Assembly: GCA_965655625.1 (NCBI GenBank)
Contig: CBFHHA010000002.1
Coordinates: 33,655 to 97,654 of the forward strand
Direction of reading: 5' to 3'
Source: Flavobacteriales bacterium
GTDB taxonomy: Bacteria > Bacteroidota > Bacteroidia > Flavobacteriales_D > CAJJDF01
Length of the DNA: 64,000 nucleotides
Positions 49,659 to 56,600 of this stretch are shown in pieces (the first letter of the stretch is position 1; every line of letters begins with the position of its first letter). A program made the translations under genes and the position numbers. Under the pieces are notes generated by a model that ran no database searches, was not told the origin of the DNA, and worked only from the letters and a program-made list of their open reading frames with translations.

Positions 49659-49731
49659 GGTTCCTTAGCTCAGTTGGTAGAGCAATGGACTGAAAATCCA
49701 TGTGTCCCCGGTTCGAATCCGGGAGGAGCCA
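49659..49731 (+). tRNA. tRNA-Phe (anticodon GAA)
   Basis: Hand-folded cloverleaf: acceptor GGTTCCT/AGGAGCC (one G-U pair), D arm GCTC-AGTTGGTA-GAGC, anticodon stem ATGGA/TCCAT with loop CTGAAAA, T arm CCCGG-TTCGAAT-CCGGG, discriminator A. CCA is not encoded. Confidence 0.93.
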
Positions 49732-49740
49732 CTAACAAAT

Positions 49741-49774
49741 AAATCCCTTCCACGAAAGTAGGAGGGATTTTTTA
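49741..49774 (+). terminator. Rho-independent terminator after tRNA-Phe
   Basis: AAATCCCTTCCAC-GAAA-GTAGGAGGGATTT (two imperfect pairs) followed by a T-run. Confidence 0.65.
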
Positions 49775-49855
49775 ATTTAATCAAGTTTTATTTCGGGATA
49801 TTCTGTGTTCAAATCAATGAACAGATACGGTATTATTTCTTAGCTAGATCCCCCA

Positions 49856-49893
49856 GCAGATTGACATTTGAGCTTTAGCGGTAATGGCAATCG
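49856..49893. repeat. Left REP-like palindromic hairpin flanking the Y1 transposase
   Basis: gcaGATTGACATTtgagctttagcggtAATGGCAATCg has arms that pair at 9 of 10 positions. It is the inverted counterpart of 50558-50593. Confidence 0.75.
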
Positions 49894-50000
49894 GTTTACT
49901 TGCACTAACCTACTAAAACTACCTAAATAAGTTTAATTTTCAAAATCCCCAATTCTCCTGCATAATATTTAGCACTCGAATAAATATATTCTTCAGGTCT

Positions 50001-50477
50001 TTATACAATTCCTGCTTCTACAGGATTGTTATGTATATAATTCAATTTTTGTTTTGTCGTCTCAGGTTTGTATAGCTCAATAGGATGATTGTCATTTCTC
50101 CAAAGTTGGTAAGTTTGCTTTTTACTATTTTTTTTTCCTGCTTCTAGCACCACAGAAAGCAACCATTCTTTTTTACTCTCATTACTTTCTTGAATCGTTT
50201 TCAATATCTGTTTACTGGTATGTTTTTTCATATCTCGTATAATCGCAGATAGCTTATAATCTTCTTTTGCTCTTGCCAACATATGAATGTGATTACTCAT
50301 TATTACAAATCCATAAAGCTCCAATCCTTTTTCTTCTTGGCAATATCTCAAACTTTCAACAACTATATCTCGGTAGTTCTTTCCTGAAAATACATCTATC
50401 CAATTTACTGTACTGAATGTTAAAAAGTATAATGCATTTTCTTTTACTATCCTATAACTGGTTGTTCCTTTGCTCAT
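50001..50477 (-). CDS. IS200/IS605-family Y1 (HUH) transposase, RAYT-like; truncated by an in-frame TAA
   Basis: HUH motif SNHIHML and catalytic-Tyr motif LNYIHNNPVEAG. The frame continues for 25 sense codons beyond the TAA, to TAG at 49923-49925. Confidence 0.8.
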   Translation of the reverse strand: MSKGTTSYRIVKENALYFLTFSTVNWIDVFSGKNYRDIVVESLRYCQEEKGLELYGFVIMSNHIHMLARAKEDYKLSAIIRDMKKHTSKQILKTIQESNESKKEWLLSVVLEAGKKNSKKQTYQLWRNDNHPIELYKPETTKQKLNYIHNNPVEAGIV

Positions 50478-50557
50478 AGTGCTAATTTAAGTCTCTGCTA
50501 TGCCAATTACAAATTGGCTCTAACGTTTGAGCTTTTAATCATAGACTGCTTGTGGTA

Positions 50558-50593
50558 CGATTGCCATTACGCTGTCGCTAAATGTCAATCTGC
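50558..50593. repeat. Right REP-like palindromic hairpin (inverted copy)
   Basis: Its reverse complement, gcagattgacatttagcgacagcgtaatggcaatcg, shares the first 14 and last 12 nt exactly with the left copy. Confidence 0.75.
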
Positions 50594-50632
50594 AATTTAT
50601 TTATTTATATGGCAAGGTGCGGGGATTATTTT

Positions 50633-53600
50633 TTATTGAAATAAATTCACTCGAATCGCAAACCCAACATTCTGATTCATCGTAGGGAAGGAAGTAGAGA
50701 TGTATGGATTCGTCATTACTCGGTCGTAATAGAATCGCAGAGTAAATTGTTTGTTCAGTACATAATCGGCCGATCCTTTGATGGCAATGTAACGTTGTCC
50801 CGCAGTCAGTTGATTCTGATTCTGGTCTATTTTTCGGATAATGGTTTTGTTGTCTCTTAGCGATACATCCAGTCGTGCATTGATGTCGCTAATTGGTGTT
50901 TTCTTTCCTATTTTGATTGGAAATTTTACATTCTGAAAACGATATCCTGTTCCAATTGTAATTTCCGTTCCTTTCAATTCGGTAATTTGATTGTTAGCCA
51001 AACTCAGTGAAATGTTCCTGTTCGATCTGTATTCAAATTTTGTGATTAAGCTGTTTTGCCAAGTTGCGTCAACTTTAAAAAGTGGATTAAACTGTTCAGT
51101 AATAGCAACGGCCATTACTTGTTGTTCGGGTCTTATATTTCCGCTTTCGTCTCGGGTCTGGCTATTGCCATTTTCGTCTACCACTGCTTCCAAATCTGTA
51201 TTGAAAGAAGCCACAGTAAATGTGGAATTGTAAGCATGCGAAAAGACAATACTTCGGAAAAGTTTCCGAATAGCGGGCATTCTATTGAGTCCATCAATCG
51301 TTACTCTCCAATTTAAATTGGGCAGTGCGCTAAGCGGATTTAACGTCTTTTTGGTTAAGTTTTTTCCTGAATAGGCCGCAATAAAAGAAGCCATTACAAC
51401 TTCTTGCTGGGAAGCACCGTAACCATCATAGAATCCATCTGCATCAAGAGCTTGGGCCGAATAAGGGTTTTCCGAATTCAATAGGGCAGAGGCTTGTTTT
51501 CTGTTCTCGAGCAAATCGGTGAATAGTTTGGAATTCCCGTTTGTGTCGTCTTTCACAAAGGCAGTTCGTATGGAGTTAAACGAATAGTTGTAATTCCCAA
51601 CTCTCATTGTATTAAAATTTTGATAAGTTCCCAGAGAGTCATCCCAAATGAAATTCTCATTCATGTTTTCAGAATAAATGTAGTTTGCTGTAAGTTCTAC
51701 TCTAATTCCTTTAAATGGCTCAAATGTAGCTCTTGAGTTAAAATTTTTGCTGTGATTCGTGGTTCTTTGCGTATTGATGAATCTGCTTGATGGCCCAACC
51801 AGCCAGCCATTTTGAGCGGAAGTTACAGCGAAGTCATTCCCAGTTTCTCTTCCAAAAAAGTCTCTTTCTTGTTCTCCACCAAATACAAACCCTATACCAG
51901 GAGTGGTGAACCCATTGGTCATTCCAAAATATTCCGATCTTAGTTTGTATCCCGGCAATAATTGCCCATCAATTGTACTGTAACTGAAAGTCACGTTTTG
52001 CAACGACATCAATATTTTGGCCAATCCATCGCCAAAAGTAAGGGCATTTGGGTCTTTCTTTTTCGATTTTCCTTTTCTCTTCCCTTTGTCATCCTTGTCA
52101 TCTTGCTTGCCGTCATCGCTTTCGAGCTTTCCAGATTTTATTCTGCTTGTAGCAGATCTACGCGAGTTATTTCGTGACTTTTGATTCACTTTCTTAAAAT
52201 AAGGCACCTTATTGTACAAGTTTTTCATATTAAAACTTCCGTTCCATGCTATGTTTCTTGAGTTTTGGATTGTATTTCCTAATGAATCTTGCGACAAGGG
52301 CGCTCTTTGCCAGTCGTAAGTAGCTTGGTATTTTGTGGTCAAATTCACAAAACTTAGTACAGGTATTTTCTTAAATGGCCATGTGTAAGTGACGTTGGTC
52401 GATTGCAAAAAATGATTGTTTTCACCGAAATTTCCGAAACTTTTAAGCACACTGTCGCGGTTCATTTGAAATTCGTCAGGATAAAGAGTTTTATCAACTT
52501 TTAAATCACCAGGTTCTCGAATGAGACCTTGGTTGTTCGCGTTGTAATTTATCCTCAAACCTTCCATGATATTCCAGTTCAGGTTGTAGTTTCTGTCCCA
52601 AGTAAAAGTTTTGGAGAATTGAGGAATAATTAAGGCATTTCCGGTAATATCTCGTGCTTTACTTTCTGAGTAAGTCCTATCGATATTAGTGGTGAATGCT
52701 AGTTGTTTGGGCAGAGGGTTTATGTTAATGTCTCTAATAATTCTAAACCACTGCGAAGACCTAAGCAATTTACTATTCCGGAAAGGAGTAAACGGCTTCA
52801 TATTGGTTTGGTAAGTATAGTTTAGCGCCCCGTTGTAAGTTCTGTTTGTGTTATATTCTGTTTGAATATCTCTGCGGTAAAGTTCGTTGTAGGCATAAGT
52901 AAAACCAAAGTTCTTCAAATCCCAGGGATACATATTAGTCGAACGTTTTTTAGGTGACAAACGAACGTTTGTAAAGTTGATACTTCGCCTAACGGTAATG
53001 TCTCTTGCATCCTTGATTCGCTGTTGCTGCTCCTCTATTGATACGTCAGAAATAGATTGGTCAAATTCAATGTCGGGATTCAGTGGATCGAATTGTGGAT
53101 CGATTATTCCTTCCGAAAAACCAAGGAAGAGAGGGAATTGTAGCCCTACATTTTTTCCAAAGAACTTTCCCAATTGAATACTGGTTGCTGCATCCACTTG
53201 GCGAATAGTTTCCCTCTGTCGTTCGCTTACTCTTTGTTCTATTCCACCAAATCCTGGTGTACTAATTTGTCCTGCCAAAGAAACAGTGGCAAAGTCAGCT
53301 AGGGTTGTTTGCACTCTTGACTGGGCAGCCCATCCACCTGAGTTTTCAAAATCAGCCATTCTCAGTTCGTTCACCCATACTTTTACACACTTCTCTCTTC
53401 CATCATCTGGTTGCCAAGGATGCGCTTTGTCTTTGTTTGGGTTTCTTACCCCAATCATAATAGTTTTAAGATCTCGTAGGTTTGGATTACCAATAACCTT
53501 TATGATGTGATCGGTTTTTCCCGGTACTGTTTGTTCAAAAATAGAGAGAATGGAGGCGTTCACGCCCAGCGAATTATTCCTGGCAACTTTTAAGTTTTTT

Positions 53601-56600
53601 AAGTCTTGTAAAATTATTTCTAAGTTATTCGCTTCTGGCCAAACATCAGCTTCCGATACTGCACCGTATGCCGTCATTTTTATAGGCATTTCATATTCGT
53701 AATAGTTGAACTGAAAATCGGTTCCAATTCTAACAAAAATTGTTACATCATCATCTTGAACAGGATCGTTGGTAATAGTGTGTTGCTCACCGTGCACAAA
53801 CATTTTGATTTTCTTGTAGTTCAATACATCAAAATCAACACTTCTGAAAGCGGCCTTGGCTACACCATCTTTCAGTCCACATAGTTCCATCTCAAGTGAT
53901 TGCTCGTTCAGATATGCCTGTACAGCGGAGTTGGGATTAATTTCTCTTTGAAAATTGGGTGGTATCGTGTAGTTAATTGGATCTCTTTCAGAATTTTCTT
54001 CAATATTCACAGCGGAGATATTAAAAATTGTTCCCGAAGGATCGGATTGTATATATTCTCCATCGTCCACTATATCTTTCTCATACCTTCTCCAAGTCCC
54101 TCTCAATAGTTCTAATCTGGCAAAACGAAGTATAACGGGTTGTTGGAAGTTTTTCATGAATATTCTCATAAAACGAATAGATCTAAAGTCTTGAATTCCG
54201 TTTACCACTTTGTTTGGCTCACGAACAGGCACACGATATTGGTACCAGGTGACTTGTTTTCCTGATGCTTTGTGTGTTCGTACAACTTTATCAACGATAT
54301 AGTTCTTACCCACTTCCATTTCACCAGGTTTCATGTTAATTTTGTATTGATAGTAACTTTCTGTTTCATTCAAGTTATTATCTCTATTGATGTCTTCCAA
54401 ATCTGGCAAAGTAGTTTTAGAAGTTGGGTATCCTTGGGCATTTATTGACTGAGATTGTTCGTCAGTTGCCGAGTTTCCTTCCAGTCCGTTGAATCTCTTG
54501 TATCGAGCAATAATATTTGCTGTTCGGCTGTCATAAACATCATTACGGTAGAACGTGTAGTCATCTCCTGCAGGGTCGCTAAGTAAAGCAGATTTTGCGG
54601 TTGGTGAAAGTGAAGAAGTGTTTACCCAATTTAGGTAATCCGAAAAGAATGCTTGCTCTTGACTACTTGAAAGCCCGTCCAATCCAACATCTTGGAATAT
54701 TCTACTTGCAGGTGTATTATCAAAGGCAGTAATAATTTGTTGAACAGTCGGAACTCTTCCCCAAGCTGTTGAAGTGAGGGTAGAAGGGTCAAATACACCA
54801 TCGGTAGGAAGTCCATTTTCAAATGTTTTGATTCCATCTCGCAATATGTCCTCAGAAACGTTCCCTAAATTAATATAAAGTTCACCCCCTGTCGAGTTTG
54901 GTGAGTCGTCATTATCACCACCCCCTGTCGAGTTGAAAGGTTCCATTATCCAGAATTGAATGTATTCTATGTTTGCATTTTCAAAATCATTCGTTTGAAG
55001 TTGCCTCATGATGCCACCCCATCTTGAGCTTGGGTCGTTCAATAAACCATTATTTGCTAGTCCTCTCGAAATAGAAGAAGGATCAGTATCAAAGTTATAA
55101 GGTCCTCTTTCTGAAGGGAAAAAGGCTAAGTTAAACATGGCAATTCGGTCAATTTGACCAGCCGTAGGATCTATACTTCTGTTTGGGAAAAGTTCACTCT
55201 CCTGAACAAGTCTCATGGTGTGGTTATGCTGAATTGCATCAGCCTCCACGTAACCCGGAACCAATCCTCTTTCTTCGTAAAAAACAGAAGGATCGTAAAC
55301 ATTCCAGTTCATTAACGCTCTGTTTTTTCCATAGTTCAGGTTGTTAATTAAATCTGCTTCTGGAAATAAATCGGGTTGACCTTGCGGTACACTTGCAATT
55401 ACCCATGTATTAAAGGAACGGATATCAATCGCAGATTGACTTCCTTCAAAATCATCGATAAACGATTGTCCTTCATCTCCAATTGCTGGATTGTGGCCTG
55501 GAATAAGGTAGGCGGCTTCTACCGATGCAGTAATACTTGATTTTTCTTTGGTGTTGATAAAAGGAATTCGATCTACCAATTTGGTTAAAAATGGCGCGTC
55601 TTGCTGGAAATTACCATTTATTCCGAGCATGGTGTTTCGAACAGGCTCATCCCCAATGTTTACTTTTTGCGTCATCGGTTTTTCTGATAACCTGAGCATG
55701 GTTGCACCTAAGTTGAAATTTTTATTGAATTGGTAATCAAAATGGGTACCAATCATTGTTTTTTGTATCGAGGTAAAGAGCGAGTTACTCTCCAATGATA
55801 TTTTAATGGGAGTTCCCGAGTTCAATACACCATCATTTAATATTTTCACTCTTCCGATATTGTAATCAACGGTGTAGTCTTGGTTTTCCACTAACCGAAC
55901 CCCTCCGGCAGTTACGGTTACAGATCCCTGAGGAATGTTAAATGCGTTTAATGATATTTCTGAGCTATTTGCTGATTCATAGGTTCCCTTTATTTTGAAT
56001 CGGTTTAGCTCTGGAAACTGGAGAGCGATGGTTTGGGTACTGTCATATAATTCGTTGTAGGCAATTGTATTCACCACTGCGGGGGAAACCCCTGCATTGG
56101 TAAGTTGTTGCTCTAGATAAGAACCAAAGGGTTCTACTTTACTAAAAATAATTCGTCCGTTCTGTGGGTTGATTGTTCCCCCATTATCTACTTTATTACC
56201 AATGTATTGTAGAGGGATAAAATCAAAGACTCCATCGGCATACGATTGTTGTTGTTGATTAATAATATCCGACCCAATAAGTTGAAGGACCAATTTATTA
56301 TCTACTCCAGGTTGGGGTATGTAGTTGATTTCAACCCCAGTTTTTGGATTGTTGTACCAAATGTCTAGCTTAAAGTTTTCTTGGTTTATCTGGTACGCAC
56401 CAATCGAATAGATGTTTTTCATCATCAAGTCCCACACTTTGTTTTGGGGTGAGTTGACTGTTCCTTTTAGCATTTTTACAAATAAGGCATCATTTCCTTT
56501 GATTCCGTCCGTGGAGAATTCACCTATCTGAAATGTTTTTCCTTGATAGGTATATTGGTAGGCCACACCGAGAATCTCGTCATTATTCAAGGGTTGATTC

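Follow-up and report, generated by a model that had tools for sequence, protein, structure and literature searches.

Repetitive extragenic palindromes (REPs) and the REP-associated tyrosine transposases (RAYTs) are the setting for the locus described here, which lies in 64,000 nucleotides (hereafter the window) of a Flavobacteriales genome (assembly GCA_965655625.1, contig CBFHHA010000002.1, positions 33,655 to 97,654). The E. coli enzyme TnpA-REP is described in the account of PMC3479197 as a monomeric HUH/Tyr nuclease that binds the REP hairpin as single-stranded DNA (ssDNA) and requires a mismatch in the stem; the choice of a CT cleavage site depends on A3 and G4 in the GTAG foot, and deletion of an auto-inhibitory C-terminal tail raises cleavage activity. 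A second kind is known both as TnpA-Y1 subclass 2.6 (Quentin et al. 2018, PMC6006769) and as RAYT Group 5 (Bertels et al. 2017, PMC5581495). In the sections and tables of Quentin et al. that treat it, subclass 2.6 is found mostly in Bacteroidetes, with a median length of 179 aa and a mean of 1.8 copies per genome at 40.7% identity. Its motifs are NH[LIV]H, YIH[QN]NP and a W motif WQ (Table 1 of that paper), with about 82 aa between HuH and Y; a 21-aa insertion, predicted to be helical, lies between alphaC and beta4, and the tail has a conserved SS. The same source reports that the genes are flanked by atypical, weaker structures that lack GT[AG]G and recur elsewhere in the genome, and its Table S1 gives the feet GCTG, GCTA and CCCC-GCTAG. 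Flanking 16-mers of Group 5 genes occur about 31 times per replicon (Bertels et al., PMC5581495). The segment of the window described below is very probably a REPtron of this Bacteroidetes subclass, 775 bp long, consisting of a RAYT gene and two inverted, cognate REP-like hairpins.

The open reading frame (ORF) of the unit carries SNHIHML and LNYIHNNPVEAG, as stated in a preliminary description made from the sequence alone. The HUH motif is NHIH at residues 62-65 (H63-H65) and the catalytic residue is Tyr147 in YIHNNPVEAG, 82 residues beyond His65; both motifs were invariant in an alignment of 37 sequences. The protein was assigned to the RAYTs by several measures. The Pfam Y1_Tnp domain, expected from the earlier reading, was recovered at 44.7 bits. 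The NCBIfam model REP_Tyr_transpos (NF047646) scored 98.6 bits, above its cut-off of 80, and the IS200 equivalog (NF033573) 36.1 bits, below its cut-off of 55. Nearly all of 1582 homologues were 178-186 aa long; many are named 'REP element-mobilizing transposase RayT' by the Joint Genome Institute, and one from Tenacibaculum 'REP-associated tyrosine transposase' at NCBI. A family profile search of the PDB ranked E. coli TnpA-REP (4ER8) first, while a single-sequence phmmer search of the same database returned weak IS200-like matches only and did not find 4ER8.

Structural comparison was made with P0002, a full-length relative 91% identical to the window protein (P-numbers denote homologous proteins, L-numbers the contigs or loci compared). 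Its AlphaFold model had a predicted local distance difference test score of 91.7. The best Foldseek match was again 4ER8 (E 2.7e-8, template modelling scores 0.63/0.69) over 182 columns, C-terminal tail included; IS200/IS605 TnpAs aligned over about 135 columns, with E values of 7e-6 or weaker. The model contains an extra helix, 103-116, between alphaC (76-97) and the next strand, and alphaD, which bears Tyr147, spans residues 138-154.

The frame taken as the coding sequence (CDS) in the preliminary description stands as the present ORF, though not as the full gene, which is interrupted by an in-frame stop (Table 1). In alignment the window protein ends 26 residues before its homologues. The 25 codons past the stop are still in frame (RPEEYIYSSAKYYAGELGILKIKLI*, including IYSS), and the TAA replaces the homologues' GAA; the ancestral CDS is therefore longer, as given in Table 1. 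A tblastn search with P0002 covered 49926-50477. Since alphaD ends at residue 154, the stop at codon 159 removes the C-terminal tail only. The tail motif Y-YSS, nearly invariant among homologues, is encoded in the window in frame but past the premature stop.

Two related hairpins of 36-38 nt, both imperfect, bracket this Y1/HUH gene in inverted orientation, and sequence inspection and a repeat search bore out the earlier statement that their arms of 14 and 12 nt are identical. The plus strand at 49856-49893 reads GCAGATTGACATTT-GAGCTTTAGCGG-TAATGGCAATCG, and the reverse complement of 50558-50593 reads GCAGATTGACATTT-AGCGACAGCG-TAATGGCAATCG. The repeat search returned arm pairs of 14 nt and 13 nt, each 100% complementary. 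When folded as ssDNA each copy formed the imperfect palindrome expected, with stems of 5 bp and 4 bp around a central A.G mismatch. The stem of the 3'-side hairpin is 49859-49868 / 49883-49892, with the mismatch at 49864/49887, and that of the promoter-side hairpin, which has the same mismatch, is 50590-50581 / 50568-50559. Exact matches to the 14-mer and 12-mer arms occurred only at the two flanking sites in the 64-kb window. Neither looser motif searches nor a repeat search of the whole window turned up another member of the hairpin family there; GCAGATTGAC at 55431, within sprA, was set aside as a chance match.

Table 1. Features of the RAYT unit, in window coordinates.
Feature	Position	Strand	Basis or remark
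Whole unit (REPtron), 775 bp	49850..50624	-	Inter-locus homology begins/ends at C-runs; empty site in L085
3'-side hairpin, 'type C' loop GAGCTTTAGCGG, GCAG foot	49856..49893	+	Sequence, repeat search, folding
Promoter-side hairpin, 'type A' loop AGCGACAGCG, GCAG foot 50593-50590	50558..50593	-	Sequence, repeat search, folding
Present ORF, 158 aa	50001..50477	-	Catalytic core complete, C-terminal tail absent
Ancestral RAYT frame, 184 codons, one in-frame stop	49923..50477	-	Alignment to 184-aa homologues
Nonsense codon TAA, codon 159	50001..50003	-	GAA (Glu) in homologues and sister assembly L084
Outer C-run, CCCCC then A, directly 5' of GCAG foot	49850..49855	+	Family copies; L003/L047 indel
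Half-REP leader CCCCGCACCTTGCCAT	50609..50624	-	Conserved in L073, L078; 'type D' element in L001, L035, L019
Palindrome GCCAATT-NNN-AATTGGC (window: GCCAATT-aca-AATTGGC)	50502..50518	.	Between 5'-side hairpin and start codon

A chance origin of the hairpins is excluded by their conservation rather than by their folding energy: the hairpin flanks homologous genes of 60-91% identity, with compensatory stem changes, and recurs in about 30 extragenic contexts. Inverted hairpins were found around the genes for P0002 (91%; both gene ends in its contigs), P0009 (73%), P0018 (71%) and P0105 (60%). P0008 (72%) had the downstream hairpin only, its contig ending where the upstream copy was expected, and P0043 (69%) had the upstream hairpin only. 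The copies have in common a GC[AT]G foot, a basal stem, an apical part that varies between 14 and 48 nt, and the inverted orientation. The first two stem pairs differ in a compensatory manner (GA/TC in the window, GG/CC in P0105, GC/GC in P0009 and P0018, AG/CT in P0043), and the partner of the G in ATG-G-CAA is A, G or T, never C. Given that both partners of the basal pairs vary together and the N.G mismatch persists throughout, hairpin and mismatch alike are under selection, and they vary along with the protein.

Comparison between loci also placed the boundaries of the unit. Similarity between P0002 contigs ends just beyond a C-run, the two edges reading CCC(C)N-GCAG and CTGC-NGGGG. Almost every family copy has CCC(C)N ahead of its foot. 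An exception is the promoter-side hairpin of the window, where the C-run lies further out, inside the half-REP leader. The unit thus reaches outward to the C-run (49850-49854 proper) on one side and to CCCCGCACCTTGCCAT on the other, in the order C-run, 3'-side hairpin, RAYT gene, promoter region with palindrome, 5'-side hairpin and leader. The preliminary description was correct in seeing a flanked gene as a unit; its extent of about 740 bp left out the C-run and the leader. Read on the minus strand from 50624 to 50609, the leader is CCCC-GCACCTTGCCAT, a same-orientation repeat of the C-run, foot and left arm. It has C at the position of the mismatched A, and is consequently a perfect complement of ATGGCAA. 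This suggests that the leader could replace the mismatched left arm in pairing with the ATGGCAA right arm, giving two alternative structures. Leaders of the form CCCC-(G)CACCTTGCCAT were seen upstream of the promoter-side hairpin in the window, in L073 (9870-9890), in L078 (9885-9900) and in L035 (5445-5520).

L078 (10001-11454) holds a tandem of two different RAYT genes, encoding 178 and 183 aa. The second has its own, unrelated hairpin type, GTCC[TG]TAGT...ACTA[AC]GGAC, which resembles a Pedobacter saltans REP listed in Table S1 of PMC6006769.

Set against the properties that PMC6006769 gives for subclass 2.6, the window gene has the motifs NHIH and YIHNNP, the 82-residue spacing and a 184-aa ancestral frame, and its homologues P0041 and P0043 have YIHQNP. 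Helix 103-116 of the P0002 model, the SS tail of the homologues and the Bacteroidetes host agree likewise, as do weak, atypical flanking hairpins without GT[AG]G, with GC[TA]G-type feet and with copies elsewhere. A Pedobacter saltans REP in Table S1, TGCTGTTTGAGATGTTAGCATAGCGCATCTCGAAC, is similar to the window hairpin in stem and loop. The foot is GCAG in the window and GCTG in L016, and not GT[AG]G; this is not contrary to subclass 2.6, since the absence of GT[AG]G is a property stated for it. All properties compared fit membership in subclass 2.6 / Group 5, except the printed WQ. Differences were also seen. The window copy is nonsense-truncated ahead of the SS tail, and a close relative has several units with identical CDS, as opposed to a subclass mean of 1.8 copies (identity 40.7%). 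The relevant parts of PMC6006769 do not list a C-run, a conserved N.G mismatch or a half-REP leader for the subclass. The RAYT/REP reading offered in the preliminary description, in preference to IS200, was upheld by the two NCBIfam models, the fold, the inverted hairpins conserved with covariation and the solo copies in relatives. Its argument for following up a Bacteroidota example, such systems being characterised mainly in Proteobacteria, was outdated, subclass 2.6 having been described in 2018 as found mostly in Bacteroidetes (PMC6006769), and the window unit, which fits that subclass, belongs to an already described kind.

The best structural match, E. coli TnpA-REP (RayT/YafM, 4ER8), belongs to a different subclass (2.2, Group 2). 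Both proteins have a monomer-type Y1 core with a C-terminal extension, and both genes are bracketed by inverted REPs. The hairpins are alike in being imperfect, with a mismatch and a tetranucleotide 5' foot with AG at positions 3-4 (GTAG in E. coli, GCAG here), and the clustering of copies recalls the REP arrays of E. coli bacterial interspersed mosaic elements (BIMEs). Identity over the structural alignment was, however, only about 15%, the extra helix 103-116 is found here, and the foot is not GTAG. E. coli has hundreds of REPs per genome, compared with a handful here, and biochemical activity has been shown for E. coli only.

Copies of the hairpin elsewhere were sought in GTDB representative genomes and in metagenomes; the host genome lies outside both sets, and an exact look-up of the window protein gave no record. 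The GTDB scan, with the pattern ATTGACATTT-N6-16-AATGGCAATC, returned 31 stretches, of which those in two Flavobacteriales metagenome-assembled genomes (MAGs) were real matches: FRAM18_bin198 had six hairpins on three contigs, and AGTU_80_bin_7 one hairpin, 96% identical to the left copy of the window. In the metagenomes 17 of 23 stretches were real. The remainder (about 26 of 31 genome and 6 of 23 metagenome stretches) were discarded as chance matches, being singletons in unrelated taxa; three were checked and all lay inside ORFs. No intact RAYT gene was present in the metagenome stretches, three of which had 31-residue N-terminal fragments only. Together, MAGs and metagenomes gave about 30 distinct extragenic contexts of the hairpin in related marine Flavobacteriales, many of them without a RAYT gene within kilobases. 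All family copies in distinct contexts (30/30) lay outside long open frames.

Three types of copy could be distinguished. Type A copies are promoter-side and are followed by the RAYT promoter region, and type B copies are those on the 3'-side of P0002-type units. Type C copies have the loop GAGCYTTAGCGG, as in the left hairpin of the window, followed by a tail unrelated to the gene, GGTTTAGWAAGATRAAC; they occur solo in at least nine outer contexts and also in same-orientation clusters. In L057, two type C hairpins and a type A hairpin lie within 1.5 kb of each other. The pattern in relatives is REP/BIME-like at low copy number. The type C tail is often followed by GTGAG... (L035 5403-5900, L057 6900-7320, L050 5300-5696, L067 2400-2792), and several type C loci have about 150 nt of further common sequence (ATTCTATGAAAGG.ATA....GGTATTC...). 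The tail region matched no Rfam family, and the 150-nt sequence may be either a longer repeat or a conserved neighbour.

The unit is placed between tRNA-Phe (49659-49732) and the end of a 2452-aa SprA-type ORF at 50633. The same order, Lnt - tRNA-Phe - SprA, is found in L085 (GCA_965660305.1; Lnt 77% identical), where the 310-bp intergenic region contains no unit and represents an empty site at the same tRNA-Phe/sprA position. The unit is a lineage-specific addition at this site. The target site was not definable from the empty site, the L085 and window sequences having diverged too far in this intergenic region.

In the P0002-bearing relative, at least five upstream contexts shared the 555-nt CDS with 100% identity, whereas the stretch of 116 nt from the hairpin to the ATG varied at up to 12 positions (up to 10%). 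L001, L003 and L004 each contained parts of two units about 1 kb apart, with contigs breaking inside the P0002 CDS. Retrieval by exact protein and repeat-collapsed metagenome assembly may inflate both the identity and the number of P0002 copies; despite this possible inflation, the unit is clearly multicopy in this relative. P0105 and P0043 were found at one conserved locus each across many assemblies. Compared with L047 (6505-6520), L003 (815-880) has 62 additional nt after the same 240-aa gene, placed exactly between CCCT and the GCAG foot, an indel at the presumed site of cleavage. L001, L003 and L005 have a common downstream flank and different upstream flanks; a rearrangement was considered here and dropped, as assembly chimerism through the identical repeat is possible.

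Units of the P0002 relative stand about 1 kb apart in the same orientation in L001 (343-2316), L003 (1-1607), L004 (1-1871) and L047 (5681-6728). Between them are small genes without Pfam match, such as that for a 240-aa protein with a lipoprotein-like N-terminus (L047 5786-6508). Family RAYT units often lie beside variable regions (L010 107-9867, L047 1758-5564, L048 1-20561), the neighbours being an RHS/SpvB/TcdB-type toxin followed by many small ORFs, proteins sorted by the type IX secretion system, a zeta toxin and IS1595 transposases.

Decay of the gene was apparent on comparison with L084, a second assembly of the window species. The two differed at 61 positions in 13.6 kb, of which seven lay in the unit, six of these seven in the 555-nt gene, corresponding to a density of about 1.1% in the RAYT gene and about 0.4% in the surrounding 13.6 kb. 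Codon 159 is GAA in L084 (7986-8462, equivalent to the present ORF), whose own stops are G56* and Q96*, so that nonsense changes make up three of the six coding differences (E159* in the window), at different positions and independent. The RAYT gene is clearly inactivated in this sister assembly, and both hairpins are identical in the two. The RAYT system is decaying in this genome, its tail lost to a nonsense codon and its hairpins intact. The 158-aa product, which retains the full catalytic core, could be inactive, unstable or deregulated. Less probably, by comparison with the Delta152 truncation of E. coli TnpA-REP, it may be a deregulated, more active enzyme.

The behaviour of the P0002 relative raises another explanation, namely that the whole 775-bp unit is an autonomous insertion sequence which copies itself like IS200/IS605, and that solo hairpins are its decay products. 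The unit shares with IS200/IS605 TnpAs (IS608, ISDra2) the HUH/Tyr single-strand chemistry, recognition of subterminal hairpins, and evidence of whole-unit mobility and decay. The preliminary description had named many identical copies of the whole unit as a sign of an ordinary insertion sequence; the count stood at one in the window, but in the P0002 relative the identical CDS in at least five contexts, with units about 1 kb apart, is of this kind. Absence of the unit from the syntenic L085 site, nonsense decay in the window species, and truncated genes and end remnants with inner-flank sequence in L019, L034, L047, L054, L058 and L062 also speak for this explanation. The ends, however, are inverted and not in the same, direct orientation; there is no tnpB partner, the IS200 model falls under its cut-off, and the match to IS200/IS605 folds is weaker and confined to the core, whereas the TnpA-REP-type fold is shared together with its C-terminal tail. 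Against it stand also the single conserved loci of P0105 and P0043 and the type C solo hairpins with a non-RAYT tail in at least nine contexts. The family is rare on plasmids and no close form was found on viral contigs, and the identity of the copies may be exaggerated by the retrieval and assembly effects noted above. On balance we consider a self-copying insertion sequence unlikely, although it is the strongest competitor. It is similarly doubtful, if conceivable, that in this marine Flavobacteriales clade the whole REPtron (gene, hairpins, C-runs and leader) is still an autonomous mobile unit, inserting beside earlier copies, clustering among small variable genes and repeatedly inactivated by nonsense mutations. 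If so, it would form a living link from IS200-type elements to single-copy, domesticated RAYTs. Searches of plasmid and viral contigs gave five distant plasmid matches and no close viral match, and so lend no support to a plasmid or phage as vector.

REPs are able to act as terminators or stabilisers (PMC3479197), and the two hairpins lie extragenically at gene ends; they might be ordinary regulatory structures that terminate transcripts or stabilise mRNA for sprA, tRNA-Phe or the Y1 gene, with only an incidental link to the Y1 protein. This is highly improbable and already contradicted by the co-occurrence data, as the sequence is found with the Y1 gene in unrelated neighbourhoods, changes along with the protein lineage and is missing at the empty site despite unchanged tRNA-Phe and sprA. 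Neither hairpin is followed by a T-run, and the folding energies are weak. Several observations also weigh against a RAYT/REP system of subclass 2.6. The two flanking hairpins are the only copies in 64 kb, with no other dispersed repeat, and a REP population in the host genome is accordingly unproven. Folding was weak (-6.1 kcal/mol, z -1.7; -8.1 kcal/mol, z -2.9), and per-genome counts in relatives were low (six in FRAM18_bin198). Most non-flanking A- and B-type copies carry the unit's own adjacent sequence, and may have arisen by decay of units, not by independent spread of REPs. At the W motif WR is found (invariant W126-R127), as opposed to WQ in the MEME consensus of Table 1 of PMC6006769, and none of the enzymatic steps has been demonstrated among subclass 2.6 members.

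A mechanism for the window REPtron can be inferred from E. coli TnpA-REP, with which it has in common a hairpin with an obligatory non-Watson-Crick position, a foot with AG at positions 3-4 and a tailed enzyme of the same fold. A monomeric HUH/Tyr enzyme would bind the hairpin while the DNA is single-stranded, reading the conserved non-Watson-Crick stem position (TTG-N-CAT / ATG-G-CAA) together with the GCAG foot on its 5' side. Cutting of single strands would follow close to that foot, at the C-run or next to it, and the enzyme would join them again. In this way hairpin copies, and in certain lineages the entire unit, would be spread or rearranged. That similarity between loci breaks at the junction of C-run and foot, and that the 62-nt L003/L047 indel falls there, points to strand breakage and joining nearby.

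The promoter-region palindrome, noted in the preliminary description, was present and folded well for its size (-6.0 kcal/mol, z -5.0). It is kept in P0002 loci, and in L016 both of its sides are altered (GGTAATT..AATTGCC). It is possibly an operator or promoter element. Outside the unit, a G+C-rich stem followed by a T-run (49741-49775) stands directly after tRNA-Phe and is conserved in L085 and L086; it is a likely terminator. An Rfam scan found only tRNA-Phe near the unit, and gave no match on four solo-hairpin loci. The whole-window repeat search and tblastn with P0002 found no second RAYT gene or other dispersed repeat in the rest of the 64-kb window.

The type of system is thus already known, and annotation pipelines would name the gene; the current picture of RAYT/REP systems is unchanged by the find. 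What is new here is local in kind: the premature stop, parallel nonsense alleles in the sister assembly, the true boundaries, a mismatch backed by covariation, the empty site and the clustered multicopy units in a relative. The locus provides a well-resolved example for a little-studied RAYT subclass, with exact boundaries, a GCAG foot, an always-mismatched position, an empty site and independent inactivating mutations. It offers concrete substrates for the question of how non-GTAG RAYTs recognise their hairpins, and a natural case in which to ask whether RAYTs are domesticated or still selfish.

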